A stretch of 64,000 bases of DNA, taken from a virus. Below the pieces are notes generated by a model, which worked only from the letters and a program-made list of their open reading frames with translations, did not search any database and had not been told where the DNA came from. Location of the stretch: positions 43,282 to 107,281 of IMG/VR virus record IMGVR_UViG_3300010413_000020. The stretch is one strand, 5' to 3'. Shown one piece after another: positions 236 to 21,233 of this stretch (positions are counted from its first letter, which is position 1; every line of letters starts with the position of its first letter). The position numbers and the translations under genes were made by a program.

Positions 236-1558
236 TTAATAAGAACGCCTACTTAATCGATGATGTGTGTGAGAAACCCAGTGGAAGTCTTCCCAGTGGT
301 GGTAAACATCTTCCAATGTTTTTGCTTCTGCGTTAAACCAAGCCGTACCTCTTCCATTACCCAACGAGAAGTTTAGCCGGAGTTCTTCTCGTGCGTAGTA
401 AGTGATTCCTAGAGCGTAGTATTGAGTACTCCGCCACTTTCCTCGGTGAGTGGGACTGGTCCGATGTCCCGCAAGTTCAATAAGTACCGCTTTCAATTCA
501 GGATTGACAGGAACTCCCTTATGGGAAGCCTCAATATCTTTTCCGTACTTTTCGATAAAGGTTTTGGCTTCCGCGAAATCAGCAAAGGTTTCTACTCCAT
601 TCCAGGGTTTGGTGTGTCGTACAATTCCGAATTTGAGTTCTTTGCTTTCTACTGCAAAAGTAGTCCAATACTTACAGGAGTTATAACGTTTGTTGAGCTC
701 ATAGGCATTGAGTAATAAGTAGTTCAATTCTGCATCGGTGAATGGAATATGAACTTTATTTAATATCTCAACTACAGCATCCCCCGAACTTATAGGATAC
801 GGGCCGGAACACCAACGTCTTGAATGTTTGTCTCGTTGTCTTAAACAGGTATCTGCTACAAAACATTGAGAGCATACTTCTTTCTCAAACTTGTTAAAAC
901 GTTTTCGTTCTTGAATGCCTTTCTGTATTTGCTGAGACTTGTAATCGATTACTGAAAAGTCATGGTCTTCTGGTAGCCTGAAAGTTTTTCCGAAGTCTTC
1001 AGCGAGCGTGAGTCGGGGGCTAATATAGGTGAATCCTGCAATACGTGAAACACGATTCTTAAGATTCTTGAACGCTTCTCCTATCGTTGCTTCTCCTTCA
1101 GTAAGAACTAATTTTTTGATAGCACAATCCCTGGGGTTATCTCCTGATTCGAAACAACCCTTACATCCAATAATGGATTTTTGGGGGAGGGTACAACTAT
1201 AATAGATATCATAAAGATTGTGTTCCTTGATACCTTCTTTAGGAGAATAAGCTAACACAACTTGTCCTTTCCGCGCTGATTCCAAATCGTGGGCCACACT
1301 AGACGCAATTTCACTAGCTATTTTCCAACAAAACCCGCCGCTATCTGCGCCAAGCCAGGTATCTCGATAGATTAGGGCTCCTCCTTTCAAAAGATTTTGA
1401 AGTTCCGGGTCGTTCATGATGAGATGCTGGGTTGCTGGTTCTTCAATTACCGGATCGTTGGAGAGAGAAGTAAATAACATAACGAGAGGGCTGTCTTCAT
1501 CGACATTGTAGGTATCGGAAGTTGCGATTGTGAATACCTTATCCGGCGTTTCAGGCAT
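236..1558 (-). CDS. Hypothetical Cys-rich protein, translationally coupled downstream of the RT (candidate RT partner/effector)
   Basis: ORF track 236..1573. Likely start is ATG 1558 after a GGAGG RBS, overlapping the RT stop. Cys clusters CTLPQKSIIGCKGC..DC and CSQCFVADTC..WC. Confidence 0.75.
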   Translation of the reverse strand: MPETPDKVFTIATSDTYNVDEDSPLVMLFTSLSNDPVIEEPATQHLIMNDPELQNLLKGGALIYRDTWLGADSGGFCWKIASEIASSVAHDLESARKGQVVLAYSPKEGIKEHNLYDIYYSCTLPQKSIIGCKGCFESGDNPRDCAIKKLVLTEGEATIGEAFKNLKNRVSRIAGFTYISPRLTLAEDFGKTFRLPEDHDFSVIDYKSQQIQKGIQERKRFNKFEKEVCSQCFVADTCLRQRDKHSRRWCSGPYPISSGDAVVEILNKVHIPFTDAELNYLLLNAYELNKRYNSCKYWTTFAVESKELKFGIVRHTKPWNGVETFADFAEAKTFIEKYGKDIEASHKGVPVNPELKAVLIELAGHRTSPTHRGKWRSTQYYALGITYYAREELRLNFSLGNGRGTAWFNAEAKTLEDVYHHWEDFHWVSHTHHRLSRRSY

Positions 1559-2723
1559 GACTCCTCCCCTCATATTGTTCTTTAGCTGCGGTAAACTCCG
1601 CTAGTAGTTGTGTTCCTTTCTGGGGATTTATCTGTCCCATGTAATTTATTTTTCCTCGAAGCCATGTGAGGAGTGCTCCGCCATTTTTCTGTCCCGCTTT
1701 AGCTGCTTGTGAATCAAACCCGTGGACTAGGCAATTGTGGGTGATCGCTCTTACTTTCCTATATTCCATTGCTGGGATATTCGGCCTTTGGTTGAAAACT
1801 GTTCCAAGAAGGAATCTACCGTAATAGCCGTGGGCAATCTTAGTTTTACCGGGATTGATACGGTAGCCTGTATTATGTACGATAGATTTGATGTCCTCGA
1901 TGAACTGAAGAGTTTCGTCTTTACTGAAAGTACGTCCACACGTGAATGATAGGTCATCACAATAACGGGTATACACCCACTTCTTTGTTCCCTCGAGCTT
2001 GTCCTTTTCGTTTCGCTTATTCAGGTAAGAAATTATCTTCCCATCGAATAAATCGTTTGCTACGAGATTGCATATTGCACCAGAAGCAGGTGAACCCTGG
2101 GGAACTCCGCTCAAGAATTTAGGTACCCAAGCATCCGGAGATAACTTACTTTTGTGGCGATATTGCGGATTGGGAAAATCTGTAACCGTGAGTAGGTTCG
2201 CCAGCAGGCTTGCGACTTCATGATTATATCCTATCTTCTTGAAGTAGTTACGTATCATGGCGCGACTGGTGGATGGAAAGAAATCCTTGAGGTCCATGTG
2301 CACATATAATCCCTTACGCGGACAGTCATGCGCTTTTGGGGTTTTGGTTCCGGCATCTTCGCAAATTTTACAAGGAGGAATGTGCTGAAGGACGGCGTGT
2401 CTACAGGAAAGACCCTTTCGATAGGCCGTTACGTGAGCCCCTAATTGGTCTTGTAAAGGAACCAAATATCGGATGTGAAGTTGATGGAGCAATAATTTCA
2501 TCATGTCATTTGGAGAATGTAAAATGCGATGTCCTTTCTTCTTTTTAGGTATCTTGAAGATTTCGTACATATCCTTCTTGTTCTCCAACATGTACCACAT
2601 TACCTTATTGCGAAATCCCAGACTGAAAGCCAACGAACAATCGTCAAACGCATAGGGCACTTCATCCGGAAGATCAGGAAGCTCAATTACAGCAATTTGT
2701 GTTTTATTAAATCCCACACTCAT
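1551..2723 (-). CDS. Retron-type reverse transcriptase
   Basis: IPKKKKGHRILHSP; AY; HAVLQH (NAxxH-like region X); DLKDFFPS; PQGSPASG; YTRYCDDLSF (YxDD); INPGKT; LLG at the VTG position; C-terminal LRGKINYMGQINPQKG typical of retron RT thumbs. Confidence 0.88.
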   Translation of the reverse strand: MSVGFNKTQIAVIELPDLPDEVPYAFDDCSLAFSLGFRNKVMWYMLENKKDMYEIFKIPKKKKGHRILHSPNDMMKLLLHQLHIRYLVPLQDQLGAHVTAYRKGLSCRHAVLQHIPPCKICEDAGTKTPKAHDCPRKGLYVHMDLKDFFPSTSRAMIRNYFKKIGYNHEVASLLANLLTVTDFPNPQYRHKSKLSPDAWVPKFLSGVPQGSPASGAICNLVANDLFDGKIISYLNKRNEKDKLEGTKKWVYTRYCDDLSFTCGRTFSKDETLQFIEDIKSIVHNTGYRINPGKTKIAHGYYGRFLLGTVFNQRPNIPAMEYRKVRAITHNCLVHGFDSQAAKAGQKNGGALLTWLRGKINYMGQINPQKGTQLLAEFTAAKEQYEGRSHA

Positions 2724-3373
2724 GCCTCACCTCCTGCTTCTTCTACTGAACGCTTAGAGTTGTTGTAAAACTCGTTGTCCAATGCCAGTTCAGATTCTGC
2801 CTTTGATTTGCAAGTGAAGGTACCTGGCGTACACTGATTTGAATGATATCCCGGTAGATTTTTGCAAACAGCGCAGAGTACTGGAATAGTCCTGGTCGGA
2901 GTATGAAACGCAATTTGCGGCATCATAACTTTTTCGTTATGCCCTCTTTGAATTGCCCGTGACATAAGATATCCGACTGAAGAGGCGTATGGGTTTTTGA
3001 ATTTCTTAGCATCTCCATACACCGTTCGTACATGAGTAGGCACAACCATTATCCAACCTCTGTGGTTTCGTATGAGTTTCTGGAAGTTGTCTTGGGATGT
3101 TCCGGGTGTTCCCTCTCTTCGCAAATCGTTGCGTTCCACAGATATTTCGCAGAGGTTATCTACGTGTAAGCTATTAAGTGCTTGAAGCAAATCTTTGTCT
3201 AACGGCATTGAGAGATAATAACGAAATGTCTTTCGAAAAACAGGTGCAAGTTTTTCACGTGCTAGGTACACGCGGTCATATGGAAAGTAATCATAGATAG
3301 GGGTCTTTTGGGAATGACGTAGTTTATGTTGTGCGATTTTCACACAAATAATCTTCTCTCGTCGTTGTGTCAT
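2720..3373 (-). CDS. Hypothetical protein with C-terminal Cys cluster, coupled upstream of the RT
   Basis: 217-aa ORF; ATGA overlap with RT start; CAVCKNLPGYHSNQCTPGTFTC. Confidence 0.75.
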   Translation of the reverse strand: MTQRREKIICVKIAQHKLRHSQKTPIYDYFPYDRVYLAREKLAPVFRKTFRYYLSMPLDKDLLQALNSLHVDNLCEISVERNDLRREGTPGTSQDNFQKLIRNHRGWIMVVPTHVRTVYGDAKKFKNPYASSVGYLMSRAIQRGHNEKVMMPQIAFHTPTRTIPVLCAVCKNLPGYHSNQCTPGTFTCKSKAESELALDNEFYNNSKRSVEEAGGEA

Positions 3374-3389
3374 TTGCTTCTCTCCCTGT

Positions 3390-5060
3390 TTAATCTTTGA
3401 TCTTTAAAACCCTTGGTTGCATGTATTCGTTTTCAGTTCCAGTAGATGTGAGTACCCAGATAAGCGGGCATGGAGGTAAATATTCAGGAATGGGTCCGTG
3501 TGGCGGGCCAACCGGAGCTTCCCCGTCCGTTAAGAGAATCGCTAAATCTGGGGGGTCCGTCATAGGATTTTCTTCTCGGTCAGCGTTGGGCATCCAGTCC
3601 CCTTCTTCGTCTCTTCCACACATGTATTTGAGGGGTGGCGTAAAGCTTGTGCCACCATAGCCGTAACGATTGATTAATTGATATCTGTCTCTGGCGAATT
3701 TTTCAGTATCATCGGGACCCAGAAGTTTCTCATACTGAATGGCATGGTCGAACATGATGAGACGTATTGTTACTTCGTCTTCCTGGTTCATAATGCCTCG
3801 AATTTCGGCCATGAAATCCAGAAATTCGGATTGACTGACACTGCCGGATGTATCGACCATACACGCGATGTTGAATGCAAAGTTCTTTTGGAATCCGGGA
3901 TAGGGTTCCATACCTTCGTCTTCCAGATGGAAGAAACAGGGATTGGGATACGCGGTGCTTTCATCCAATTTGGAAGAAACTTCTGATCGCATCATGTTTT
4001 GTAGAACAATCTGCCAGGGAATTGTAGGCTCCTCGAGTAAATCTTGGATAGCTTCCATGAATTTTCCTGGAACTTTTCCACAACTTTTCTTGGTTTGTTC
4101 TACTGCGTTTTTGGTTATCCTTTTGGCTTCTCTCTTTGCACTATCAATTGCTCGTTCAATCTCGGCGCTGGTCATCTCATCAAAATCTAAATTCCAGGGG
4201 ACGTTTTGAGGGTTCTGGCCGCGTACTAGATCTTTAAACCACTCTGGGTAATTATCGTCCAGGCCGTCTGCGGGGGATAATTCTTCTGAATTAGCTCCAC
4301 CACCTCCTTTGTTGTTATCCCCTTCTTTGTCACCCTGACCAGATCGATTATTATCCTCTGTATTCTGGGTGGAAGATTTTGAAGAACCATCAGGGGAATC
4401 TCCTCTTCCACCTTTGGAATTTCCCGATTGGCGGGAGGACCCACCTTGTTGATTGGATTGATTGGCATTACACCCTCCTATCATTGGTATGATTTGTAGA
4501 TTTGGATTAAATCCGTCTTTTTGCATATTTTTCATTAATTCATTAAAATAGAACTCGAAGGATTGCCCTGTTGGATAGTTGTATTTCGCTTCTTCCGGCC
4601 AAATAAATCTATCTCGATACTTCGCAAAATTGGTACGTGGAGTTTCCAGGATAGGACGAACAGCAATGTCGTTTGCTGCCATATCCGCTGCTACATTCAT
4701 TATGGGTTGTAAACGGGCATAACGAATATTATCGTTGAGTTTCAGACGGATGCGCAACATTTTTTCCAGGTGTTGAAGAGCCAAATGCGCGGCTTCATGA
4801 ACCACTACGAGTAATTGAAACGGTCCTTCTTGTTGTACAAACCAGACAGGATGCCAAACCAACATGTACCTGCCGTGATTATCGAGAGTTACTGCTGCCG
4901 TAGGTGGCCAAAGGTCTTTACGGGGGGCGCGACCACAACCATTAATCATGCGGGCATAGAAGTTACTGCCTCCTCGGGGACTACAGAGCCACTGTAGAGC
5001 TCGAGACATTGCTCGGTCTATCTCTTCTTCAGAAAACTCTTGTTGTTTTATCTCTTCCAT
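3390..5060 (-). CDS. VWA-domain protein with N-terminal HExxH metallopeptidase-like domain (DUF2201-like)
   Basis: HEAAH; low-complexity G/S/N linker; MIDAS motif DTSGS, then GGT and LTDG. Confidence 0.85.
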   Translation of the reverse strand: MEEIKQQEFSEEEIDRAMSRALQWLCSPRGGSNFYARMINGCGRAPRKDLWPPTAAVTLDNHGRYMLVWHPVWFVQQEGPFQLLVVVHEAAHLALQHLEKMLRIRLKLNDNIRYARLQPIMNVAADMAANDIAVRPILETPRTNFAKYRDRFIWPEEAKYNYPTGQSFEFYFNELMKNMQKDGFNPNLQIIPMIGGCNANQSNQQGGSSRQSGNSKGGRGDSPDGSSKSSTQNTEDNNRSGQGDKEGDNNKGGGGANSEELSPADGLDDNYPEWFKDLVRGQNPQNVPWNLDFDEMTSAEIERAIDSAKREAKRITKNAVEQTKKSCGKVPGKFMEAIQDLLEEPTIPWQIVLQNMMRSEVSSKLDESTAYPNPCFFHLEDEGMEPYPGFQKNFAFNIACMVDTSGSVSQSEFLDFMAEIRGIMNQEDEVTIRLIMFDHAIQYEKLLGPDDTEKFARDRYQLINRYGYGGTSFTPPLKYMCGRDEEGDWMPNADREENPMTDPPDLAILLTDGEAPVGPPHGPIPEYLPPCPLIWVLTSTGTENEYMQPRVLKIKD

Positions 5061-5134
5061 TTATCTTCTCCTCTGTCTATAATTCAATAGGCGTGAGACG
5101 AACGCCATAGATACAGGAACGTTGAGGTGTTTAT

Positions 5135-6148
5135 ATGACCCAGGTAATTGACCAGACAAATGACCCAGGTTTTTCTACTTTGAGGGTGATCGTGGACCGT
5201 TTTCCTCGATTGAGAGAAATGGCTAAAACTGCTAACCTCGATCCCTCTGAATTTTCAAATTTACCCGACGAAGCATTTGCATGGCCGGGACAGCGGCGGT
5301 TTCCTATACATAATGCGGAGCATACCGCACTGTCTATGGGTTACAGTAAAGTTGCTCAGAAATTACCATCGGATGTGGCAGAAACGATGGAGAAAGCCGC
5401 GTCTCTGCATGGGGTGGATACTGAGGCATTCGAGGAACCGGTTGCAATCGAAAAAGTAGCATCCGACGATGGGCATTATCTCATCCCTGACAAGCGTAGA
5501 TTTAAGATAGCATCTAAGGAAGATGTGCCTGTTGCGGAACGGATAATTCATGAAAAATACTCATCCCTCTCGGTCGGAGATAGAACTATTGCTTGTATGC
5601 AATTAGTTAAGGTCGCGGAGGAATACGGGGAGGAGTTACATCCTTCTACCATTAAACTCGCGGGTTTAACAATTACGAGTACTCGTACTATGCGAGATTG
5701 GATAGAGGCACGTAAAGAAGCTTCTCTAAGACTTGGATCTGCGATGGCTCAAGCATTTGAAACGTTAGCTAATCAATTTCAGGATGTAGAACCTTTTATT
5801 CATAATCGTGGCGACCAAATGAAACTGGCTAGTGCTTTACAGCGCATGGACGAGGCTGCGGGGTTAACTCAATTTTATGGCCGTAAGTTGTTAGACCCTA
5901 TAGAAACAGTCTTTAACACTCCTCATCGTTCCGATAATTTTGTTAAAGTGGGTTCCGCACTTCAGAATAAGGCACTCTTAGCTTCTCTCCCTCTCTCGTT
6001 TTGGGAAGACGCGTTAGGACCAGAAATTGCTGCCGAGATAGCCCCTAACGGTCAGGTGGATATAACTATGTTGGAGCAGATTCTTCCCACGCTGCCCGCC
6101 GATTTAAAATCGGCCTTGGAAACCCAACTCGCTGCGTATAATCGGTAG
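5135..6148 (+). CDS. Hypothetical protein, probable virion/head component
   Basis: 337-aa ORF with GAGGTG RBS, TATAAT at 5078 and several K-x-A motifs shared with late proteins. Confidence 0.7.
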   Translation: MTQVIDQTNDPGFSTLRVIVDRFPRLREMAKTANLDPSEFSNLPDEAFAWPGQRRFPIHNAEHTALSMGYSKVAQKLPSDVAETMEKAASLHGVDTEAFEEPVAIEKVASDDGHYLIPDKRRFKIASKEDVPVAERIIHEKYSSLSVGDRTIACMQLVKVAEEYGEELHPSTIKLAGLTITSTRTMRDWIEARKEASLRLGSAMAQAFETLANQFQDVEPFIHNRGDQMKLASALQRMDEAAGLTQFYGRKLLDPIETVFNTPHRSDNFVKVGSALQNKALLASLPLSFWEDALGPEIAAEIAPNGQVDITMLEQILPTLPADLKSALETQLAAYNR

Positions 6149-6151
6149 TTT

Positions 6152-6916
6152 ATGGAACAACTTCTGGAAAAATTTGCGGAGCATGTTTCCCATCTTACAA
6201 ATTACACTGTAAAGACCGCCCAGAGAGCAGACATAGCACGAAAGTACTTACGCGAAGGGGATGAACGCTCGGCTGCGGCTTTGTTGATGGCCCTGCGTAC
6301 TCTTCATGGAATTGAGTCATTCTATTGGGAACCTGAGACTATTTGGTTGACCCTCGAACGGGATGATCATTTAGACATGGAAGAATTGGGACGTAATAAA
6401 TTACAAGCGGCTATTACCCTTATTGTTAATCCTGCATTTTTTTGGGACAATCTCGTATTCCAACGAACGGTTCAGGCACTTAATGGAGAACCCTTTGACC
6501 CAGAAGCACTTCAGGAATGCCATCCAGGATATATGTCTTGGGCAGTTTACGAATCAGGATTGATTCGAGGATTAGACCCTGAGGAACCTGTATCTGCTGA
6601 ACTGGATGAAGATGTTCAACAATACGTAGCAGTCTGTTTGAAGCGTGCAGGTTATGTATATCCTCCTAATCAATTAATCGCTGTTGCTGACAATTTAGAA
6701 AAGATTCTTCCTAGAGAGACCAAGCCATTTATCGACCAAGTAAAAAAATCATGGGAGCACCTGGACAAGGGAGCCCTCTCGGAACGTACATTCCAAGAGG
6801 ACCCCCTCGATGTCCAGTTAGCGCAACTTGCTTCCTGTTACGAATATGTGCGAGAACGCGCCAATGAAATGGCGAGTGAGATTCTTTCGTTAGACCGAGA
6901 ACTCCTCAACTCCTGA
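6152..6916 (+). CDS. Hypothetical protein
   Basis: 254-aa ORF directly after the 5135 gene. Confidence 0.7.
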   Translation: MEQLLEKFAEHVSHLTNYTVKTAQRADIARKYLREGDERSAAALLMALRTLHGIESFYWEPETIWLTLERDDHLDMEELGRNKLQAAITLIVNPAFFWDNLVFQRTVQALNGEPFDPEALQECHPGYMSWAVYESGLIRGLDPEEPVSAELDEDVQQYVAVCLKRAGYVYPPNQLIAVADNLEKILPRETKPFIDQVKKSWEHLDKGALSERTFQEDPLDVQLAQLASCYEYVRERANEMASEILSLDRELLNS

Positions 6917-8126
6917 TTTTTTCTTCCATTCCGCGATAGTTGTTGTCTATTTCTAACTGAAGATTACACCAACTATCATAGTCTTGGAGTTCTCGCATCA
7001 GCGAATTGAGATATTCTTCCGATTTATTTTCCTCGGCAATAGACCGCATTTGAAAGAGCATTGCTCCGGCCATCTCCAGTGGGTGCAATTCTATGAACTT
7101 AAGAAAGTTCTTGGCGGTGTCTTCTACGTCTGGAGTTGTCGCAAACATCAAACGCAAAACGTTTTGGTCCAAATCAGCCAGGGGTTCATGCATGGCATTA
7201 TCGACCATTTTCTGTATGGCGTTTTTGACTTTACTGAATCTACGTAAAACGTCATCCGCACCAATTGTTAAAGAAGAATCTTTAAGATGTGCGGATAATT
7301 CCGAGGCCATGGTTACCCCTATGGATGCGGCGAATCGTTGCATAGCAAATTCGCTATTTAACGGAATACCCTTTGCTTCCATGTTGTAGGAATCTTCGCT
7401 GATGGTTTCGATGTTAGCAGGACAGTTATATTGTTTCTGTTCTTTCAGAGCCTTCCAGTCGTATATGTTGTTTGGTTTAGCTCTAAAGTAATCCAGAATA
7501 CCAGGATGACAGGCTTTATCTTTTGCTGCGCCTTGTCCGAAGAGATGGAATCGTTCAGTAGCAGCGTGTTTCATGAATCCTTTTAAATCCGGCAATACAT
7601 AAAAGAATTTAACGCGACGGCGTATCGCCGCTTCATTTTCAATCGAAGTTACATTATATTCCGCGGTTGAGGGATTCATCGTTCCTGCAACAAGACATTG
7701 TTTGGGCACCACATAGTTAAACATGCGCCCGTCTTCCATCATGGTAAAGAATTGATTAATGGCATGTTTGAGCCCGCGGTTGAGCTCATCAAAGAGAATG
7801 ATTTTCTTTTCATCTCCTTTAGGAAAGATTTCAGGAACGGCAACTTTGAAAAAGTCTTCAAGGGTACGCACTGGTATGCCGGAACCCATTAGGCCCCAGT
7901 GAGCAGTATGAATAGGAACGACGGTGTATCCTGTGTCATGCGCTATCTGTGACCAAATCTGTGTTTTGCCTATTCCCGAATCCCCTACCAGGACAATACA
8001 GCCCCGTCGTTGGTGAAATTCTAAGGACAAGCGAATTTGAGCCGCAGCTTCCGCAAGTGTGACCTGGGGAATGTCGCGCAATTCAGCATACTTAGGAACA
8101 ACTTTTTCTTCTTCTTTACTTGCCAT
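6906..8126 (-). CDS. MoxR-like AAA+ ATPase
   Basis: Walker A GDSGIGKT, Walker B ILFDELNR, sensor GTMNP, arginine finger AIRRR; AGGAGA RBS. Confidence 0.85.
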   Translation of the reverse strand: MASKEEEKVVPKYAELRDIPQVTLAEAAAQIRLSLEFHQRRGCIVLVGDSGIGKTQIWSQIAHDTGYTVVPIHTAHWGLMGSGIPVRTLEDFFKVAVPEIFPKGDEKKIILFDELNRGLKHAINQFFTMMEDGRMFNYVVPKQCLVAGTMNPSTAEYNVTSIENEAAIRRRVKFFYVLPDLKGFMKHAATERFHLFGQGAAKDKACHPGILDYFRAKPNNIYDWKALKEQKQYNCPANIETISEDSYNMEAKGIPLNSEFAMQRFAASIGVTMASELSAHLKDSSLTIGADDVLRRFSKVKNAIQKMVDNAMHEPLADLDQNVLRLMFATTPDVEDTAKNFLKFIELHPLEMAGAMLFQMRSIAEENKSEEYLNSLMRELQDYDSWCNLQLEIDNNYRGMEEKIRS

Positions 8127-9772
8127 GCTTCTCTCCTTGCTTTAACTTTTATATGATGAAAGGCAATTTACAGCACTTTCGAATGAGTAGTGTCGCACAG
8201 GCATGGCTGCGCCTGGACGGACAACCCTTTCGATTAGATGATTGGCCGATGCACAAAGAGTTCTACGATGGGAGATTCCGCCGTAGTCTTTTTAAAACAA
8301 GTCGTCAGGTGGGTAAGAGCGTCACCATGTGCAACTTCAGTATCATTGAGTGCTCTCTTATACCGCACTTTTCTACAATGTTTGTGGCTCCCACTAAAGA
8401 GCATACCGTTAGATTTTCGAACACACGTTTAGGAAAGATTCTTCGCTACTCACCGGTTATTAACAAAACTTTTTTACGTACTGAGCTCGCTGATCGTGTG
8501 TTTCATAAACAATATACTAACGGCTCTGAGATGCTGTTGACCTATGGGTCCGATAGTGAGGAGCGGGTTCGTGGACCTTCAACTGACAGAAACATGTACG
8601 ATGAGGTCCAGGACATGCTTTATGACCCGGTTATTACTGTTGGTAATGAAACAATGTCCAATTCTCCTCATGCTTTTGAGACTTATGCGGGCACTCCTAA
8701 GACTATGGAGAATACCATTCAGTATCTCTGGGAGATTTCGACGCAGACAGAATGGGTGATGAAATGTGATGCCTGTGGGTCATACCAATTTATAGATAAC
8801 GAAAAACACTTGGGGAAATTAGGGCCGGTCTGTTTGAAATGCAAGTCTTACTTGAATCCTTTCCATGGCACCTGGATTGATATGAATCCTATAGATTACG
8901 GTGCAGGGGAAGACGAAGACACAAAATTAAAAGGTTTCCACATATCTCAACCCATGATGCCTTTCAATGTTCCAAAGTCGATGGAAGGGCGTGGAGATAT
9001 GGAAGAAGTCGCTCTCCGGCGATGGAAACGTATTATTAATAAGTTCGAGGGTACACCTATCTCTGTATTCCGCAACGAGGTTCTCGGCGTTTCCGACGCT
9101 ATTGGTACCCGCGTTCTTTCTAAACAAGAGCTCCAGGCTCTTTGTACTCCCCGTGAAATGCAAGATTTCCCTAATGATAAAACACTTGAAGGAATCAGTC
9201 TTACCGTAGGTGGTGTGGATTGGTCTGGTGGGGGTACTACAGGCGTTTCTCGTACTGTAATATGGATATGGGGTTTTAGACCTACAGACCGAAAACTAGT
9301 CTGTCTTCTCTATAAAGTGCTTGCGGGAATCAATCCAGTGAATGTCATAGACGAAATTGCAAAAATATTTGATGCATATCGTGTACAACTTGTTATTGGA
9401 GATGCGGGTGAAGGCCATACGGCTAACAATCTTTTGCGAAGCAAAATTGGAATTCACCGAGTACAGCAAGTACAATATGGTGCCCAAAAAAAGGCTATTA
9501 ACTGGAATGGAGAAGACCGTTGGATGGCCGACCGTACAACTCTTATCGACAACTATTTCATGGGTTTGAAACGGCAAGAATTTGAATTTGCTACTCGCTC
9601 TGAGATGGAAGTTGCCATCACCGATATTCTTAACGAGTATGAGGAAATAACTACAGCAGGTCGTCGTGTTTGGCGTCATTCTCCTCAACGTCCAGATGAT
9701 TGTCTTCATGCAGGACTTTTTGGTTGGCTTGCCTTTAAAATGGTTATGGGGGATATGAGAATGTATCAGTAA
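8120..9772 (+). CDS. terL: Terminase large subunit (true start probably 8153-8183)
   Basis: Walker A KTSRQVGKS, Walker B MYDEVQD, GTP motif, CxxC..CxxC finger, nuclease acidic motifs GGVDWSGG and PDDCLHA. Confidence 0.85.
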   Translation: MPCFSPCFNFYMMKGNLQHFRMSSVAQAWLRLDGQPFRLDDWPMHKEFYDGRFRRSLFKTSRQVGKSVTMCNFSIIECSLIPHFSTMFVAPTKEHTVRFSNTRLGKILRYSPVINKTFLRTELADRVFHKQYTNGSEMLLTYGSDSEERVRGPSTDRNMYDEVQDMLYDPVITVGNETMSNSPHAFETYAGTPKTMENTIQYLWEISTQTEWVMKCDACGSYQFIDNEKHLGKLGPVCLKCKSYLNPFHGTWIDMNPIDYGAGEDEDTKLKGFHISQPMMPFNVPKSMEGRGDMEEVALRRWKRIINKFEGTPISVFRNEVLGVSDAIGTRVLSKQELQALCTPREMQDFPNDKTLEGISLTVGGVDWSGGGTTGVSRTVIWIWGFRPTDRKLVCLLYKVLAGINPVNVIDEIAKIFDAYRVQLVIGDAGEGHTANNLLRSKIGIHRVQQVQYGAQKKAINWNGEDRWMADRTTLIDNYFMGLKRQEFEFATRSEMEVAITDILNEYEEITTAGRRVWRHSPQRPDDCLHAGLFGWLAFKMVMGDMRMYQ

Positions 9773-9834
9773 CTTTTGTCGCTGTCCGCTTATTTTCCAA
9801 TGATTGCAGTGGAAAAGAAGTGTTGTCAGAGTCT

Positions 9835-9861
9835 TTTTGCGAATAATGCCTATTCGCAAAA
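9835..9861. repeat. Perfect 11-bp inverted repeat TTTTGCGAATA-atgcc-TATTCGCAAAA
   Basis: Read directly from the sequence; no U-tract follows it on either strand. Confidence 0.8.
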
Positions 9862-10005
9862 TAGCGCCCTAGCTTGATTGCAAAGAACGGAGCGTAACGC
9901 TCCAGCGTCTCTAACAGAGAGAAGCTCCGACAAAAGTCGCTGACCTTCTGGAGAGGGCCCTTTCAGGTCCTCCTGAAGACGGGACCTCGGCAAGAGGACA
10001 AACCC

Positions 10006-10831
10006 GGTACTGCTGTCATTAGATGGGGCTTTTATCCCCGGCCCGAGTGGCGTGGGCTTCCACGGGGCAGGCGGGCTCGGGGGTAAAAGAACCAGTAATG
10101 GCACTGCTGTCTTAACGTCCTGTTTAGGGTGCTCCTGATAGCCTGCGACTTGAAGAGGCGCGGCTCTCAGGGGCGTCCCTGAACAGGTGGTTCAGGCACT
10201 GCTGTCTTAACGGGCCGGAACTGGTCAGAACCGTGGGGTGAGCCGTGAGGCGAAACCCCGGTGAGGACCTAGTCCGGCTGTTCAGGCACTGCTGTCTTTA
10301 GAATCTAGTGGCCTGCCAAAGGAAAAGCGAAGCGATCCTTAGGCAGAGCAGACTAGAGACTAAGGCACTGCTGTCTTATTTTCTCAACGCGAAGCCGCCC
10401 GGCTGCAGCACACTACTGTGCGGAAGCCTGGTGCGGCTGAACGGGGAGAAAATAGGCACTGCTGTCTTATGGGGTCCACACCGCGCACTCCTCGGGGCTG
10501 CGGTGTGACGCCTAGGCACTGCTGTCCTATGCATTTGCCGCGGGCACTGCATGACATTTCCCGTCCAATTGAATGAAATGCCTGCGAGTGCCTCGCGTCG
10601 AATGATTGGGCACTGCTGTCTTGCATACGTTCCCCGTGCGAGGTGTAATGGTAGCCGAAGGGGCCATTATCACCTGCGGGGGAACATATACAGGCACCGT
10701 TGACTTTGCTCGGGCCCATGTGCCCAACGGCAGTGGGCTCCGTGCAAGGCACTGCTGTGATCTAGGAGACGAAAGCCACCACCCCGTGGTGAACAAAGTG
10801 AACCACTCAGGTGGTGGCGCGTTTCCTAATC
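10006..10831. repeat. Array of ten 12-nt direct repeats (GGCACTGCTGTC) separated by unique 43-83-nt stem-loop spacers
   Basis: Exact copies at 10100, 10195, 10285, 10364, 10455, 10515, 10609. Variants at 10006 (GGTACTGCTGTC), 10693 (GGCACCGTTGAC), 10748 (GGCACTGCTGTG). Every spacer is a long imperfect palindrome. Confidence 0.95.
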
Positions 10832-10908
10832 GCGACAATCAGTAATGGAGCGTATCGCTCCGACTCCGACAGCGCTCTGTTTTATAATACAGATGGAGTT
10901 CCAGTACC
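10006..10908 (-). ncRNA. Putative retron-like ncRNA: msr-like leader followed by ten msd-like hairpin/repeat units
   Basis: -10-like TATAAG at 10919-10914. Leader begins GGUACUG, complementary to the repeats, followed by G and two stem-loops (10863-10899, 10847-10861). No credible ORF. Confidence 0.55.
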
Positions 10909-10913
10909 AAAAG

Positions 10914-10921
10914 CTTATACC
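10914..10921 (-). promoter_or_regulatory. GGTATAAG promoter-like motif pointing into the array
   Basis: The same GGTATAAG core lies upstream of minus-strand units at 29086 and 63108. Confidence 0.5.
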
Positions 10922-10926
10922 GATAG

Positions 10927-13900
10927 TTAATCGATGTTTGTAAAATCGTAACGAATTTCTTCTTCAATAAAGTCGTAATCTTCTTGATTGAATTCTACAA
11001 CGGGATGTTCTGACAGGTAATGGTCAACAGATTGCAGTTCTCCATAAGAAGGGCCTACTTCTACATCCCAGGCAAAGGGTACAGGAAGCCATGGATATTG
11101 CTTAGCCACTCTGCGAACACCGTATTCTTTGAAGAAGTCCGGCATTTGTCCAATGTATTTTTTAGGCAGTTCGAAAACGATAGAATCATGTACAGTAATG
11201 AGCAGATGTCCTCCCATATCGCGAATAGGACCATCTACATCACAGAGAACACCCATCACAATATCTGAACTTGTACTTTGTATTTTGAAGTTAACCGCTT
11301 GACGTTCTGCTTTGGCAACCATATAGCGAGTCATTCCCTGTAGATCAAGACGTCGTCGGCGTCCGATAAACGTTTCAACTAACCCAAAGTTGTGTACCTG
11401 ATCTTTTGTAAGTTGAATATACTTCGGGATTGTGGGAAACATTCTAAAGAGAACATCGATAATTGCTTGTGCTTGGTCATTGGGAATTCCAACAATAACT
11501 GAGATTTTATTTTTACTGGCTCCATAAAGAATTCCAAAAACCACTCGTTTTACATTCTTACGAAGCTTATCGAGTTGTTTTCCATACCAAGGATCATCCT
11601 TCTCTATTTGTTCTCTATTTTGAAAGTCTTCGTAGGTCCAAGCGTGAACATCATCGATGCCTATTGTATCTAGAACTTTTTGTTTATCGCTTTCGCGTAC
11701 TCCCTGTAAGACGCTCTTAGGATTATAAACCATAGAGGAAAAGAAACTATGTGGGTCCATTCCATCATTTAAAGCTCGAATGAGGTTGGGGTCTTTACTG
11801 TACGCAGCGTAAACGCGCACTTCTGCGGCTTTGGCATCAGCGTTAACAATTAATTGAGTTTCGGGATTAGTGGGAATGAATATCTTTTTGATATTATGTG
11901 AACCGATTCGTTTAGGGATATTTTGCATATTTTCATCAGAGGATGATAGCCTTCCCGTTGCGGTTCCTGCTATATGAAAAGATGTGTGCATCTTTCCATC
12001 TTCTCGACTCAATGCTCTGATGTTTTCTACGAATGTGTTTCGTGCTTTGCTTACTCCTCGGTATTTAAGGAGAGCTTTGGCAAAGGGACAATCTTGTTGT
12101 GTTACAAGTCCTCTTAAAAATTTAGCGTCAGTTGAAATCTTGCCTGTAGGCGTGTAACTTAATTCTTCTTCAGTCAAATGATTATAAGATATTATCTCGT
12201 TAGTTTCGGGATGATAGAATCCCGCACCGAATAGAACTTTTCGAAGATGGGCAGTGCTATTAGGATTGAATTGCTCATCGAAGAGATTTGGTGGGATCAT
12301 TTTAAAGAGATCGATTTTAAGCATTATAATTGATTCATCCATATCGACGACTAAGTCTTCGATATATTTTTGGTCAACTGCCATACCGTAGAGTTCCATG
12401 TCTGCTAATATCTTAGAAGAAGGAATTAATCGCTCGAACATCAAATCTTTCAATGGGTCTTTGGAAGAACATTCAGGAGTAGCGATATTACGAAAATAAG
12501 GACTCTTACTTATCTCTCGACGTTGTTTTGCTAAGTGTTTATTCTCTTCTTCAATTCGAGCTCTTTGAATTGTGATAAGTTGTCGAGTAACATCGGCATC
12601 TACCGCGCCATATTCATTTAAGTCCTTTAAGGGAATATTAATAAAACCTTCGTCTTGCGCCAGTTTTTTAGCAGCGCCTTTTTCTTGAGCTGCTTCTTTC
12701 AATGCGTCTTTGGTTTCTAAACTATCCAAAATAGTTTTGAGTTGGTCTTCGTAACCTGAGTATTTTGGAATCATTAATTTAGTTAGGGCTTTCAGGCTAT
12801 AATAACCACGTTTATCCTCAGAAATTAAGTGCTCTCCCAACATCGTATCCCATGCAAATCTACGGACTTCCCAACCTTTACGTTGTAATACTTTGAGGTC
12901 GAACTTAGCGTTGTGAAATCCTTTGGGTTTAGGACATTGGAGTAACTGTGTAATATAAGGATGGACATCTGCCAGACTCCAAGGGGTTTCGGGGTGTTCA
13001 ATAGGGATAGACGCAGCTTTGCCTGGTGCCCAAGAAACTACAAGACTTAAGATTTTAAGTTTTTCACGATGAGGATATAGCGTATTGGTTTCAGTATCAA
13101 TTGCGATGACGTGGTTATCTGGGTTCTTTCCTGGAGGAGCGTATTCGACAACCATTTCTACGAGTTTACGCACGTCATCCAATTTCTTTGGAAAGATATA
13201 ATCTTTAATCAATTCACTTAAGGGCACTTCGGTATTAATAGTTTTTCCATGCTGTTGTTCGTAGACAGCATCCATAAACATTTCTACGTGCTGTTGGAAG
13301 ATTTTGTAGTATCCGGTTTTGACCAATAATGCACGTTTAGAAAACGTGGGAAATATAATTACAGGGCGATTACCTAATTTAGTCTCCAGGAATTTGCCTT
13401 GGACCGAAGCGTATTTTCCGATCTTAAGACCGAAAGACTGCACGACTGATGGCCCAAGGGCAAATACCATTATAGGTTGATCGTTATGTTTAGCGTGCTT
13501 GAATATTTCATCACGGAATTGAAGATAACAACATGAACGCATTCTTTTATTGGGTTTATCCACACTACATCTGACAGACGAAGTGTACCGACCAATAAGA
13601 TTAGCTGTGCGTTTGTGTGTGTCTTTATATTTTACGAAAGTATCCAGAATAACTTTTTCAACATCGTATCTCCAAGTAGTGTGATTTTTTACATCAGCTG
13701 ACGGCCCTGGAAGATAAGGCGATTCGGTAATGCAGAAATAATCGGCTCCAGTAGGGCCAATGCCCTCTGCATAATGTTCTTTGCGGTAAGCGGGACATTC
13801 CGAACACTTAGAACCTTTCCATGCATTAGGGCCACATAAATTACACTGTAAAAATTCAGTAGAGGTTTCGTTACCATTCGTGGTCACTTGCGTCTTTGGC

Positions 13901-13929
13901 CTGTTCGGTGGGTTTATCTTCGTCGGCAT
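10927..13929 (-). CDS. polA: Family A DNA polymerase with 3'-5' exonuclease and N-terminal UDG-like domain
   Basis: Exo motifs DTET, HNAKFD, YGAVDA; TGRLSS; motif A DAKAAEVR; motif B RKNVKRVVFGILYG; motif C VHDS. N-terminal CSECPAY..GIGPTGADYFCITESP resembles family-4 UDG. Confidence 0.92.
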   Translation of the reverse strand: MPTKINPPNRPKTQVTTNGNETSTEFLQCNLCGPNAWKGSKCSECPAYRKEHYAEGIGPTGADYFCITESPYLPGPSADVKNHTTWRYDVEKVILDTFVKYKDTHKRTANLIGRYTSSVRCSVDKPNKRMRSCCYLQFRDEIFKHAKHNDQPIMVFALGPSVVQSFGLKIGKYASVQGKFLETKLGNRPVIIFPTFSKRALLVKTGYYKIFQQHVEMFMDAVYEQQHGKTINTEVPLSELIKDYIFPKKLDDVRKLVEMVVEYAPPGKNPDNHVIAIDTETNTLYPHREKLKILSLVVSWAPGKAASIPIEHPETPWSLADVHPYITQLLQCPKPKGFHNAKFDLKVLQRKGWEVRRFAWDTMLGEHLISEDKRGYYSLKALTKLMIPKYSGYEDQLKTILDSLETKDALKEAAQEKGAAKKLAQDEGFINIPLKDLNEYGAVDADVTRQLITIQRARIEEENKHLAKQRREISKSPYFRNIATPECSSKDPLKDLMFERLIPSSKILADMELYGMAVDQKYIEDLVVDMDESIIMLKIDLFKMIPPNLFDEQFNPNSTAHLRKVLFGAGFYHPETNEIISYNHLTEEELSYTPTGKISTDAKFLRGLVTQQDCPFAKALLKYRGVSKARNTFVENIRALSREDGKMHTSFHIAGTATGRLSSSDENMQNIPKRIGSHNIKKIFIPTNPETQLIVNADAKAAEVRVYAAYSKDPNLIRALNDGMDPHSFFSSMVYNPKSVLQGVRESDKQKVLDTIGIDDVHAWTYEDFQNREQIEKDDPWYGKQLDKLRKNVKRVVFGILYGASKNKISVIVGIPNDQAQAIIDVLFRMFPTIPKYIQLTKDQVHNFGLVETFIGRRRRLDLQGMTRYMVAKAERQAVNFKIQSTSSDIVMGVLCDVDGPIRDMGGHLLITVHDSIVFELPKKYIGQMPDFFKEYGVRRVAKQYPWLPVPFAWDVEVGPSYGELQSVDHYLSEHPVVEFNQEDYDFIEEEIRYDFTNID

Positions 13930-16900
13930 GGGTTCCCTCGCTTACTGTTTCCGCATTTGTTGCCATTCCTTCCTGGGCGGCTTTAACGGTATCGTCGAGT
14001 GCTTCTTGGGCGGAATCTAACCATTCTTTTGCACGAAAAACGACAACGTCTTGTAGCTTAATACCTGCACCCAGATACGGTCCTACTTTCCGTAAAATAT
14101 TACTTTGTTGAACTTCTTTAGGAGATAGGGCGGCACGATGTCGTTCTAATGTATCTCGCAATCTAGAACCGGACATTCCGTAGGTCTTTAATTGAGAAGG
14201 GAGCAACCGCGGGACAGCTTGGTCGAGAAGCATTAAAAGCAATTCTTTCTCCTCATCAAAGTAGATTCCACAGGCGGAGGTATTTATTTCAGCTCGTTTT
14301 TCTGGGGATACTAATAGATTAGCTACAGAGACATTAATGTTGGTTTCTCTCTGATAAATTACTGGATTATACAACATTGAACCAAGGTAACTCTCGGATT
14401 CAGAAATAGTGGTTGCCCGAAGAATAGTACTCTCATTGCTGATAATATATTTACGAAAGAACGTCTTCCAATCGAGTCCCAACAATTTCATAACTGCAGC
14501 AGCACTAAATAATGAAGATGCATAACGCCACTCTACGGTAAATGGAAGAGTTGCTTGGAGTTCATGTGCTTCACGTCGAATTTCTTTTTCGTATTGAGCC
14601 AGAGTAATTGCGTGCGGGAACATCGCAGTTGTGACTTCGTGAGCCATCTCTTCAATGCGTGTTTGTCCAAACTCATGGAGAATGACATTTACGGGATTGT
14701 TCTTTCCCTTTATTTTTTTCATTTCAACCATGAGCATTCTATTGAGATCCTGCGGTCGTTCTGCTCCTTGAATTGCGGCAAAGATGATGGGCATGCGTAA
14801 TATCGATTCATAGTGAGTACCGTCAGGCCGTCCGCGAATACGACGAGTTTCTCCAGAGATAAGACCACGAACCATTTCGAGAATTTTTCTGACTTCTTCA
14901 CCGGTTCGAGTATTGTTGCTCTCAAACTCATCGAGAACTGCTAACCGAGAATCGCAATTACACATGCTCGCGACAGATGCTGCTGTGTAATTCTCTGTTC
15001 CTTGTGAGGCATACAACAATCTAATTCCCGCATAACCAAGACCTGAAAAAGTTGAGAGAAGACTAGTTTTTCCTGAATGGGTATCCCCACTAACAAACAG
15101 CATAAGCGGACGTTCAAATGCATCCATGATAGGAAAGACAAGCATAAGAGCAGCGAGCAGTTGTGTAGTTACTTCTTGATTCTTGAATTTGTATCCGATG
15201 TCATACAAATGAACCAGATCGTCATATAACTTCTTTAAATCTGCTTCTTTGCCATCATTAAGTTTTTTAATTGAGAGACCTCCTGGATACCAAGGTTCTT
15301 CAACATTGCCTTTAATTCCTACGTCGAAGATGATGCCGTTTTCAGATGGACCTTCCAACTGTTCATAGGTGACTTTAGGACCGTCTCTTCGGATAGCAAA
15401 GACATCAGCCCCGCAAACAAGATATTCAACCAAAGCTTTGGTTGGAAGTTCAATACAGTGATAACCTTGACGGTATTGGCGTGATGACATGAAATCGGGA
15501 GCTCCTCTCGCTAATGTTTGAATTGCTTCCCGTATGAAATAACCAAGTTGTTTATCCAATTTGTGTCTGACAAGTCCATCTGTCTGTTCGGGCAATTCTA
15601 GGAATGAAGGAAAACCTACTTTTTCAACAACGAAATCGAATAGAGTTCCTACAATCGGTGCTAGTTCTTGTTTAAGCGATTGTTCACTATCTAGTTTTAC
15701 ACGATTGAAACGTTTATTTCGTTTATCATATAAAACTAAATAGCGATTGCCTGCGTTAATTTCCGTTCCTACAACGAAGAGTAATTCTCTCAAAGCATCA
15801 GTACATCGCATGATGAATCCATTTTCACTTTCTTCACGCGATGCTATTTGTCGTCGTAGGATGTCGGGGTTTACATTGTATTTAGATGCAACGGCTTCAG
15901 AAAAAGCTTCGCATTCCAATCGGTCTTTCAAATACTTACCGTGCTCGGCGGCTTTTTCTATGAGATTGCGATAGTCATTTTCCGCTACTGCATCTAACTC
16001 TACAGATGCTCTCTCAAACGCCCAGTCCCATGCAGTAGTAAAGTTGTCGTTGAATTTATTCCAAATGAATTGAGAAACTTTAGGCTCACCTAATTTAACA
16101 ATAGCTTCATCTATGTCTTTACACCCAATCAGGTTATCCCAACCAACGAATACACGAGTTTCTAATTTAACAATTTTCTCTAACCAACTTTGTACGATTT
16201 CATTTCCTTTAGCAGATGGTGCGTCACCAATCAAATAAGCTTTGGAAATCCCCGAGGCTCTAAGAATTGGTTCAATATGCCCGGCTCCCCCCCGACCTCC
16301 AACCGAATATAGAGGATAACGAGCTCTGCCCGCTTGTGCAAAACGCGCCATTGTAGAGAGAACATCAATTTCTCCTTCAGTTAGATACGCATAATCTACT
16401 TCAGCTTTGGGGTCTACAAAACCACGGTATTGATCCCAACCTAAACCGAAAAGTCCAAGTAAATCTTCAAAGTCGTCGTCGGGAATTGATATTTGTTTGG
16501 GTTTGTTGTTATTGGGAGCCCTTAATTTGAGTCTTCCAATTTCCTTAGGATTAACGTGTAACGGAAATAAAACCGAACCAGCAAAATTGGCATCACGAAT
16601 ATAATTTTTCAAATATTCGAATGCTGGGTCTGCTAAGTTTTGTGGTTCAGATTTCTTATTCGTTTGATTTTCCCACTGCTTGTGTGCACGCCGGAAACGT
16701 TTAATCATTATTTCTTGAAGTCGTGTGAGTTCAGGCATAATCCCGACAGGTAGGGCATGGAGTACATCCTTGGGAATACTGCGTGCGTTTATTAACCAAT
16801 CTAATGCCTTTTTTGCTATTTGATTTTCTTTCTTATCAGGGTCGGCCAGCGCATCACACATGAAATCGTGTGTTACTCTATAAATTTCCTCCTTCATTTG

Positions 16901-19289: not shown

Positions 19290-20306
19290 ATGCAGGATTA
19301 TTTTACCGATAAAATTTACCAACTCTATTATGATGAAGTTGGAAAACATCCAATCCTATCACCTACCGAAGAACGGGACTTATTACTTCGCTATCACAAT
19401 TGTTCAGGTTGCAAACGGCGATTACCTTCCCGTATTGCAGTTAAGAACTGCCCCGCTTGCGGTACTGTTGTACCTTCCCATATTTCTGGCAAAGATTACA
19501 CCTGCGAAAATTGTGACCACAAGTTTGATACCCATATGGCTCCGCGAATATGCCCATATTGTGGATCTCCTAGAGATTTGGAGGCTCGACAAAAGCTTGT
19601 CGAATCTAATCTCCGTTTTGTCATTCGACGTGCCAAGAGTATCACAACTAAACCAGAACACTTAAGAAAGTTAGTATCTGCGGGCAATGTAGGATTAATG
19701 CTTGCAATAGATAAATTCAGTCTTGAACGTCAGACGCGATTTTTGACTTATGCTGAATGGTGGATACGTAAAGAAATGTTTGATGAAATACATTCATCTA
19801 GTTTCATTCACGTACCCACACATCGTCAAAAATCATTACGCCGAGAACAGAAAGAAGGAAAATACATTTGTAAACATTGTGGCCTACGTACTGATGATCC
19901 TGACTCACGAGAACATTGGACAGGTTGTACTGACATAGACCATGAATTTATTCTTCCATTAAATAATGATTCAGCGGTTTTAAATGATGCAGTTTCATTA
20001 GACGATGTTACCTTAGTTGATACTTCCAATGTAGAAAATCTTGCAATTGATTCTGACGCACAAGAACATTTACATGCGGCAATACAGGACATGACATTAA
20101 GTGAGCGTGATCGATTTATTATCATGGGATACTTTAATGTACCACTTCCTGATAGAAAATCGGAACCTAAAAGCTTACATCAATTAGCTGCATTGACTGG
20201 AATTACTCCAGAACGCGTCCGTCAAATCAAAGAAGAAACACTGAAAGTATTGCGAAAAGAATTAAAAAGGCGGGCAATAGAGGGGGTGGATGAAGTTTGT
20301 ATTTAA
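19290..20306 (+). CDS. Sigma-70-family sigma factor with zinc-ribbon insertions
   Basis: Region 1.2 HPILSPTEE; region 2 LVESNLRFV, GNVGLMLAIDKF, FLTYAEWWIR; region 4 TGITPERVRQI; five CxxC motifs. Confidence 0.9.
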   Translation: MQDYFTDKIYQLYYDEVGKHPILSPTEERDLLLRYHNCSGCKRRLPSRIAVKNCPACGTVVPSHISGKDYTCENCDHKFDTHMAPRICPYCGSPRDLEARQKLVESNLRFVIRRAKSITTKPEHLRKLVSAGNVGLMLAIDKFSLERQTRFLTYAEWWIRKEMFDEIHSSSFIHVPTHRQKSLRREQKEGKYICKHCGLRTDDPDSREHWTGCTDIDHEFILPLNNDSAVLNDAVSLDDVTLVDTSNVENLAIDSDAQEHLHAAIQDMTLSERDRFIIMGYFNVPLPDRKSEPKSLHQLAALTGITPERVRQIKEETLKVLRKELKRRAIEGVDEVCI

Positions 20307-21233
20307 CTACTCTTCGACAATAAGGCCGGATGCAATCTCGAAACCTTCGAGAACACCTTGATAGAATTCCCGCTTACGTGAGCTGCTGGTATTTTGAAGT
20401 TTTTCTCCATAATATTCCATCCACTCTAACGCCTTATCTTTGGAAATCATCTTAACCAGTTTTCGAACGTCTGGGTCAGCATAGTCAGTAATTTGAATTT
20501 TTGGTCCTGGTTTCTTTTTACTACCGCCGCCAGCTTTGGCTTCTTTCTTCTTACCTTTCTCTGCACTTCCTTTGCTGGCTCCTCCGGCGGTAGGTTTCGG
20601 TGCTGCTTTAGCTTTCCGGTCTACGAAGATATCTATTTTGTCTCCGATGTCTTGGGCAGTCATACCCTGTAGGGCGTATTCCACCATTTTATCGTAGAAG
20701 ACTTTATCCTCTTCGTAGTCCAAACGCGCAAAGTGGCGCACCATGGACAGAGGGATTTTACCGAGCTTCAACGCATTCTGTAATTTCTTGTGAATGCGTT
20801 GTGCCGCTAAGTGTTGGCTTACATAACCTTCGCTAACACCACACCCGTTGGCGATTTCTTTGACGGTTATCTTATTATCCACACACTTTTGAAACCCGCA
20901 AGAAATTTCCCAAGGGTTATTGTCCTCTCGAGCCAGATTGGCGATTAGGGATGTGAGAAATGCATCGCTATCATCTTTCTCCTCTGAGTAGGAGATAATA
21001 GCTTCTTTAACTCCCGCCTCTTGTAACGCAGCGTACCTGCGGCGACCATCAACGAGAATGACCTTGTTTGCATCTGTTGGATGGTTACGCACCGTTATTG
21101 CGACTTTTTGTCCTTTGGTTTTGATAGAAGAGACTAAGCCCTTGATGTCCCCAAGTTTCTCTCGGTTCCAATCCTCGGGCAACACAATGTTCTTGAGATC
21201 GATTGTTAGATTCTTGCTTTTTACTTCCGCCAT
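20307..21233 (-). CDS. ParB/Spo0J-like protein
   Basis: LVDGRRRYAA, ANLAREDNNP, HTH VKEIANGCGVSEGYVSQ, Lys-rich linker. Confidence 0.8.
   Translation of the reverse strand: MAEVKSKNLTIDLKNIVLPEDWNREKLGDIKGLVSSIKTKGQKVAITVRNHPTDANKVILVDGRRRYAALQEAGVKEAIISYSEEKDDSDAFLTSLIANLAREDNNPWEISCGFQKCVDNKITVKEIANGCGVSEGYVSQHLAAQRIHKKLQNALKLGKIPLSMVRHFARLDYEEDKVFYDKMVEYALQGMTAQDIGDKIDIFVDRKAKAAPKPTAGGASKGSAEKGKKKEAKAGGGSKKKPGPKIQITDYADPDVRKLVKMISKDKALEWMEYYGEKLQNTSSSRKREFYQGVLEGFEIASGLIVEE

Follow-up and report, generated by a model that had tools for sequence, protein, structure and literature searches.

Putative retron-type msr-msd modules, one expanded into a ten-unit hairpin array, in the terminase-polymerase spacer of a large uncultured marine-sediment phage

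The non-coding spacer that separates the terminase and DNA polymerase genes of this phage appears to consist of two retron-type non-coding RNA (ncRNA) genes on the minus strand, whose hairpins we propose are copied into plus-sense single-stranded DNA (ssDNA) by a phage-encoded reverse transcriptase (RT); we hold this reading to be slightly better than an even bet (probability about 0.55). What the sequence comparisons support is a variant of the retron kind rather than a proven retron, and we infer the use of the module RNAs by the phage RT, the production of ssDNA and the role of that ssDNA. A preliminary description of the locus had proposed that the functional folded molecule is a plus-sense cDNA copy of a minus-strand RNA. 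This proposal is supported rather than proven, each of its premises having held in indirect tests: the plus-sense optimisation of the hairpins replicates, the transcript is most likely minus-sense, and the genome also carries, on that same strand, a conserved retron-type RT gene whose product retains the YxDD motif.

The window, that is, the whole stretch of 64,000 nucleotides analysed here, belongs to a viral record of 107 kb that came from marine sediment and has a completeness of about 60%. The large terminase gene (terL, plus strand) and a family A DNA polymerase gene (minus strand) converge on a non-coding spacer of 1154 nt, the G+C content of which is 56% as against 43% for the genome; GC skew here is positive when measured on the plus strand. 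The features on which the argument relies are as follows:

1551-2723, minus strand: retron-type reverse transcriptase of 390 aa, the candidate enzyme acting in trans (Pfam RVT_1, 8e-14)
8120-9772, plus strand: large terminase gene, terL (Pfam GpA_ATPase, 3e-15; PHROG 675)
9766-9943, minus strand: module 1, a complete retron-like msr-msd unit (16-bp inverted repeat I2)
9944-10005, no strand assigned: two extra hairpins between module 1 and the array (fold)
10006-10846, minus strand: array of about ten msd-like units (repeat family D1/D2; per-unit folds)
10847-10908, minus strand: msr-like head of the array, present once (descriptor match and alignment)
10914-10921, minus strand: GGTATAAG box conserved in relatives, between the polymerase stop codon and the first pairing strand (a1) of the array; possible start signal of a minus-strand RNA
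10927-13929, minus strand: family A DNA polymerase gene (Pfam DNA_pol_A, 2e-73)

General searches did not place the spacer in a described family. BLAST of the spacer against annotated phages gave no match, the tRNA and tmRNA search found none, and Rfam 15, searched over positions 9000-12000 with E-values up to 10, returned no family, just two chance matches above E=2. Sigma-70 promoter and terminator predictions at the window locus were no better than in shuffled sequences. The genome record contains the heptamer GGTATAA 13 times on the minus strand, one copy lying at 10914-10921, versus once on the plus strand. Most copies stand 0-14 nt ahead of a start codon, and the heptamer may be a phage promoter or translation signal. 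A suspected extra module near the end of the window (around 63686) was examined and is not a module.

On the minus strand, each module begins with a pairing strand (a1) and a G that is invariant and unpaired; two conserved small hairpins come next, then one or more long hairpins of variable sequence, the dinucleotide AG and a second pairing strand (a2). On the plus strand the same unit reads as the 5' strand followed by CU, the long variable hairpin(s), the small hairpins H1 and H2, an unpaired C and the complementary 3' strand; H1 has 5-7 bp and an apex of the form G-U-(A/U)-N-C. The window holds two such retron-type msr-msd modules, module 1 and the array (module 2), with the following parts:

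9943-9928, minus strand: a1 of module 1, outer helix strand
complement of C9927, minus strand: unpaired G of module 1, after a1
9926-9904, minus strand: H2 of module 1, msr-like small hairpin
9903-9889, minus strand: H1 of module 1, msr-like small hairpin with apex G-UUA-C
9888-9784, minus strand: variable hairpins of module 1, then AG
9781-9766, minus strand: a2 of module 1, outer helix strand
10908-10902, minus strand: a1 of the array head, GGUACUG, complementary to all 7-mers of the array
complement of C10901, minus strand: unpaired G of the array head, after a1
10900-10862, minus strand: H2 of the array head (descriptor match and alignment)
10861-10847, minus strand: H1 of the array head (descriptor match and alignment)

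The fold of module 1 is closed by its 16-bp outer helix (z -5.3), which covaries at seven related loci (L128, L129, L130, L134, L137, L138 and L139) and inside which lies the terL stop codon, an overlap common to all relatives. H1 displays compensatory changes at 5 of its 6 pairs, and none of 13 sequences breaks a pair. Across 63 modules the a1/a2 helices measure 6-17 bp, often 10-17 bp, and differ in sequence in every module; nonetheless, almost all of their positions are Watson-Crick pairs (237 of 247 and 322 of 329 in two sets of modules). A search that left the junction nucleotides free nevertheless returned them in true modules: CU and (U)C on the plus strand, corresponding to AG and G on the minus strand. 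The unpaired G that follows a1 is invariant on the minus strand, and its context, G-A, differs from the TAGC, CAGC or GAGC usual in bacterial retrons. The same genome carries at least four further modules outside the window, at genome coordinates 5077-5451 and around 8176-8321 (locus L156). Three of these are in tandem and a fourth follows a small Zn-ribbon ORF; the flanking genes are on the minus strand.

In the array, each unit opens on the plus strand with the 7-mer GGYACTG, the complement of an a2 copy, followed by CT and a unique long hairpin. Units start at 10006, 10100, 10195, 10285, 10364, 10455, 10515, 10609, 10693 (degenerate) and 10748. A 14-nt linker, GGCACTGCTGTCTT, occurs in nine to ten copies between 10006 and about 10760, all of them on the plus strand (9 copies of the motif versus 0.39 expected by chance), and each copy precedes a long imperfect hairpin of its own. 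Since the distances between copies (60-95 nt) are not divisible by 3, the repeats are not coding. The a1 strand of the head matches one of the 7-mers perfectly and eight with a single position that pairs as G.U in the minus sense only, giving a helix of 7 bp as against the 16 bp of module 1. Since hairpin, AG and a2 are repeated about ten times behind a single a1-G-msr, the head can pair with any of ten a2 copies.

Several other classes of repeats were considered for the array. A CRISPR array was rejected, as the constant part is 14 nt long and the "spacers" are hairpins of 45-110 nt; among the genes scanned, none matched a cas-like family. A type III toxin-antitoxin RNA (ToxI-like) was likewise rejected, the units having the 14-nt linker alone in common and the neighbours being terL and the polymerase gene. 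Interpretations of the 14-mer as a boxA/Nus sponge, a Chi-site array, a primase site, a relaxase nic site, an attC-like site or a REP/MITE element were dropped, because none of them explains a covarying long-range helix, conserved small hairpins and unique hairpin sequences. A search for the exact linker in viral contigs yielded single chance matches only. A two-copy linker pattern was seen in only two contigs, within 48-nt tandem repeats (L126:5850-6060 and L127:2780-2990) that contain the word GGCACTGCTGT, are probably coding and look unrelated. A source for the array hairpins was sought elsewhere in the phage genome, with no match.

The candidate enzyme is a 390-aa RT with its strongest match to the PADLOC model RT_XIII (4e-49), the remaining best matches all being retron RT models. 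NCBIfam models for retron St85 (8e-37) and Ec67 (5e-30) also matched, both below their curated cut-offs, as did the group II model (3e-11). Eight homologues all keep the YxDD motif and a CxxC..HxC insert unchanged. Retrons are compact bacterial defence cassettes made of one RT and one adjacent ncRNA, and we know of no retron in which the RT acts in trans on many loci. In this phage the ncRNA and the RT gene are not contiguous: the RT gene overlaps both of its neighbours, leaving no room for an adjacent ncRNA, the nearest module lies 7 kb away and others more than 40 kb away. The gene is part of an overlapping four-gene block on the minus strand (window 236-5060) encoding a DUF2201 metallopeptidase/VWA protein, a 217-aa protein, the RT and a 445-aa protein. 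The 217-aa and 445-aa proteins matched no Pfam, PADLOC or NCBIfam family, an Atlas search with the latter returned nothing usable, and no SWIM or HEAT-repeat partner of the RT was recognised. A MoxR-type AAA ATPase is encoded at 6906-8126.

A link between modules of this kind and RTs is found in bacteria. The nearest cellular homologues of the phage RT (26-31% identity) have an ncRNA directly upstream of the RT ORF and on the same strand, laid out as a1|G|ACC.., a hairpin with a GCGUUACGC core, a long hairpin and ..AAG|a2. This signature was found at nine loci (L280, L283, L296, L305, L313, L320, L330, L343 and L345) in Planctomycetota, Ca. Kuenenia, Desulfomonilaceae and Myxococcales metagenome-assembled genomes (MAGs). 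At six of them (L305, L330, L343, L345, L320 and L313; Planctomycetota, Ca. Kuenenia and Desulfomonilaceae MAGs) a near-identical stretch of about 40 nt, ..UAAGACCAUCUUGCUGCGGCGUUACGCCGUGG.., heads the ncRNA some 0.8-1.0 kb before the RT domain. The bacterial ncRNAs, which match no Rfam family, thus resemble the phage modules in their junctions a1|G|A.. and ..AG|a2 and in having a GCGUUACGC-core hairpin, followed by a long hairpin; the core is that of H1 in the window when read on the minus strand. Unlike the phage modules, they occur as one unit per RT, in cis, right before the RT ORF.

Among phages, relatives found through terL keep the gene order RT ... AAA ATPase, terL, spacer and polymerase. 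In many of them the spacer is homologous and contains three to five units; in some it is almost absent. The array hairpins evolve very fast, with ten units here versus three in a phage with an 81% identical terL. Related genomes carry several modules each. Descriptor matches number 63 in 0.94 Mb around 50 phage RT genes versus 11 in 1.0 Mb of unrelated viral loci, and nearly all of those near phage RT genes have their RNA sense on the RT strand. Strict modules numbered 4, 2, 1, 0, 5, 2 and 0 in seven RT-positive genomes (the two without any being G003 and G006), and 0, 0 and 0 in three RT-negative relatives, which are also the most distant ones. In L258, where the phage RT is 33% identical, two clusters of modules on the reverse strand (14670-15370 and 19689-20911) hold three and five copies of the a2 pairing strand, respectively, and look like an independent array expansion. 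In a more distant RT-positive phage, the terL-polymerase spacer (L149:8200-9000) contains three tandem repeats of about 195 nt with paired hairpins, a different architecture at the same position. A public MAG labelled "Archaeoglobales archaeon" includes a 78.7-kb contig with an RT of this phage type (L266/L228); the contig probably comes from a phage and was binned together with the MAG, and therefore provides no reliable host assignment.

Which strand is optimised for folding can be judged from the hairpins themselves. The preliminary description had claimed that those at 10018-10831 fold best in the plus sense, and a comparison of the energies of both strands agrees under either parameter set: the ten units sum to -395.4 kcal/mol on the plus strand versus -354.1 on the minus strand with RNA parameters (7 of 10 units favouring plus), and to -202.1 versus -186.8 with DNA parameters. 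All ten fold better than their own shuffles (z -2 to -6.8). It had further noted G.T rather than A.C at non-Watson-Crick stem positions; each of the four stem pairs quoted does hold one G.T on the plus strand, and in folds restricted to Watson-Crick pairs single stem mismatches amount to 6 G.T versus 0 A.C in the window and to 20 versus 5 in ten related phages (binomial p=0.004). The three loop caps it listed were also located:

10242-10251, plus strand: GCC-GTGA-GGC cap, a GNRA-type tetraloop in the plus sense (sequence and fold)
10327-10333, plus strand: GCGAAGC cap, a C-GAA-G triloop (sequence and fold)
10655-10661, plus strand: CCGAAGG cap, a C-GAA-G triloop (sequence and fold)

Mini-hairpins of the d(GCGAAGC) and C(GNA)G types are extra-stable in DNA; the DNA parameter set used carries no triloop bonus, and the computed energies omit this stability. 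The exact GCGAAGC heptamer recurs in one of the L156 modules.

The preference extends beyond the window. Of a first set of 26 modules, 20 have variable hairpins that fold better in the plus (cDNA) sense (Wilcoxon p=9e-5; summed energies -1540 versus -1352 kcal/mol; 100 versus 53 G.U-type pairs), and of a second set of 37, from more distant phages with an RT just 32-51% identical, 24 do so (p=0.002; -1723 versus -1526 kcal/mol; 132 versus 62 pairs). G-N-A triloops account for 7 of 11 plus-sense triloops in the first set and 7 of 20 in the second (14 of 31 in total), as against 0 of 11 and 0 of 16 (0 of 27) in the opposite sense, with 0.8 predicted by shuffles. Most of them are closed by a C-G pair, and C(GNA)G loops make up 5 of the 52 plus-sense loops of the first set. 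The asymmetry is moderate, not absolute: about 12% in energy, and 9% versus 5% in the share of G.U/G.T pairs. The a1/a2 and H1/H2 helices are near-perfect and strand-neutral; a minus-sense preference seen there in the first set (Fisher p=0.002) failed to replicate in the second, and the notion that minus-sense wobble in these helices mirrors the plus-sense hairpins was rejected for that reason.

A plus-sense optimum could also arise without any DNA stage, if the hairpins belonged to a structured plus-strand RNA produced by read-through from terL and serving, for example, to stabilise a 3' UTR, to act as a sponge for proteins or to be processed into small RNAs. The G.U pairs and three GNRA tetraloops fit that sense, the energy advantage of the plus strand is greater with RNA than with DNA parameters, and the overlap of the outer helix of module 1 with the terL stop codon in all relatives would suit such a transcript. 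The special loops, however, are mainly G-N-A triloops, not GNRA or UNCG tetraloops, and the genomic surroundings point the other way. Among the 24 clusters with a flanking ORF, 22 have a gene on the module RNA sense (minus at the window) ending right before a1, often within 1-25 nt; at the window locus the polymerase gene ends 18 nt before the a1 strand of the array, so that its read-through would yield a minus-strand RNA. The terL locus is the only one with an opposite-strand gene upstream of the element: at least nine sister clusters are flanked by genes all on the module RNA sense, with no plus-sense gene upstream, and these are left unexplained by read-through from terL, which the preliminary description had put forward as its alternative. 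Strict terminators (a hairpin plus U-run) follow the last a2 on the RNA sense in 4 clusters versus 1 on the other sense, and two further RNA-sense terminators were seen by eye at sister clusters. Finally, the homologous bacterial ncRNAs, oriented by their own RT gene, have the orientation of the minus reading of the modules. From flanking genes, sister-locus terminators and bacterial homologues, the module transcript is most likely minus-sense. The retron-type reading is the best-supported one and ranks ahead of a plus-strand structured RNA, which we regard as unlikely.

Rather less probable still is that minus-strand RNAs, retron-type or other, carry hairpins that act as RNA, the plus-sense bias arising incidentally from composition, from biased mutation or because A.C mismatches are tolerated. 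The positive GC skew of the region and the strand neutrality of the a1/a2 and H1/H2 helices are compatible with this, as is the finding that the long hairpin has no cDNA-sense bias in the three bacterial cis ncRNAs measured, which means that such bias is not a general retron property. Yet coding controls from the same window lean in the opposite direction (22 G.T versus 35 A.C), and in several genomes the bias tracks the orientation of the module, whichever strand it lies on; regional mutation bias is therefore not the cause. Deamination of the non-template strand would be expected to generate the opposite bias, and the 14 G-N-A triloops all fall in one sense. That the hairpins instead operate within phage genomic ssDNA during replication or packaging, for example as G4/phiX174-type priming or origin signals, is very improbable: the locus adjoins replication and packaging genes (polymerase, primase-helicase) and GCGAAGC-type mini-hairpins are known from ssDNA phage origins, but such signals would leave unexplained the covarying a1/a2 helix and conserved msr-like hairpins, the sister loci dispersed behind unrelated genes, the homology to RT-linked bacterial ncRNAs and the several relatives that possess the same genes and no spacer at all.

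Under the retron-type reading, a minus-strand RNA would be made in one of two ways, by transcription running on from the polymerase gene or by a start at the GGTATAAG box at 10914-10921. It would fold such that a1 pairs with one of the a2 copies, and the RT (1551-2723) would use the 2'-OH of the unpaired G as primer and copy inward from the AG. The product would be a plus-sense ssDNA starting with CT and containing one hairpin, or several when a distal a2 copy is used, and these ssDNAs would fold into stable hairpins capped by G-N-A triloops. One RT would thereby serve at least six modules in trans, at distances from 7 kb to tens of kb.

The order proposed for the module RNA, namely a1, G, short hairpins, long hairpin and a2, is that given for the msr-msd RNA of retrons (PMC6868368, PMC7736814). 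Among bacterial retrons, the phage RT scores best on the model of clade 10/type XIII (Mx162, Mx65, Sa163; Mestre et al. 2020, PMC7736814). The phage ncRNA resembles those of bacterial retrons in that its two ends can pair, as they do over about 8-30 nt in retrons, and in that short msr-type hairpins, of which retrons have one to three, precede a long msd-type one; the G that follows its 5' strand, in a G-A context, is a candidate for the priming G of retrons. A retron-clade RT is present in the same element, and the hairpin order holds on the presumed minus transcript, whereas the curated RNA families of Rfam contain no match. The phage system departs from bacterial retrons in that RT and ncRNA are separate, each genome has several ncRNA loci, one msr can be followed by as many as ten msd+a2 units, and the setting is a conserved syntenic gene set of 170-195 kb phages, not a bacterial defence island. 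The likeness to extra-stable DNA mini-hairpins concerns a structural motif and not a genetic system: the exact GCGAAGC occurs at 10327-10333 and in a sister module, and C(GNA)G is over-represented in the plus sense, for which single-strandedness is predicted.

The closest parallel to the array is man-made. In engineered arrayed-msd multitrons, one msr and an msd array on a single transcript yield several reverse-transcribed DNAs (bioRxiv 10.1101/2023.07.17.549397). Multitron and phage array alike have one msr, with each msd bringing its own copy of the pairing strand. The multitron was built from retron Eco1 and its msds carry editing donors, whereas the phage array occurs in nature, and nothing else in the phage genome matches its hairpins. 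Given that the one-msr multitron works with the Eco1 RT, the design of the phage array would be workable in principle.

G.T pairs and G-N-A triloops may be taken as a signature of selection on the DNA product, not on the RNA template, and this strand signature offers a purely computational way of telling the functional strand of a retron-like element. If the retron-type reading is true, nature preceded the engineered "one msr, many msds" array used for multiplex genome editing, and these phages would be a source of new RT/ncRNA pairs for ssDNA production tools. It would also raise the question of what use a phage makes of a panel of ssDNA hairpins, for which our guess, of low confidence, is that they are decoys or sensors binding host or phage proteins. 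More broadly, a retron-type RT would have been kept as a conserved syntenic gene across a clade of 170-195 kb phages, with its ncRNA genes uncoupled from it and multiplied across the genome. As a tentative proposal, which we consider somewhat short of even, this clade would possess a trans-acting retron RT, dispersed msr-msd genes and natural multitron arrays, and would use the resulting library of ultra-stable ssDNA hairpins, shaped by selection at the DNA level, for instance, as decoys against ssDNA-sensing or retron-type defences of the host.
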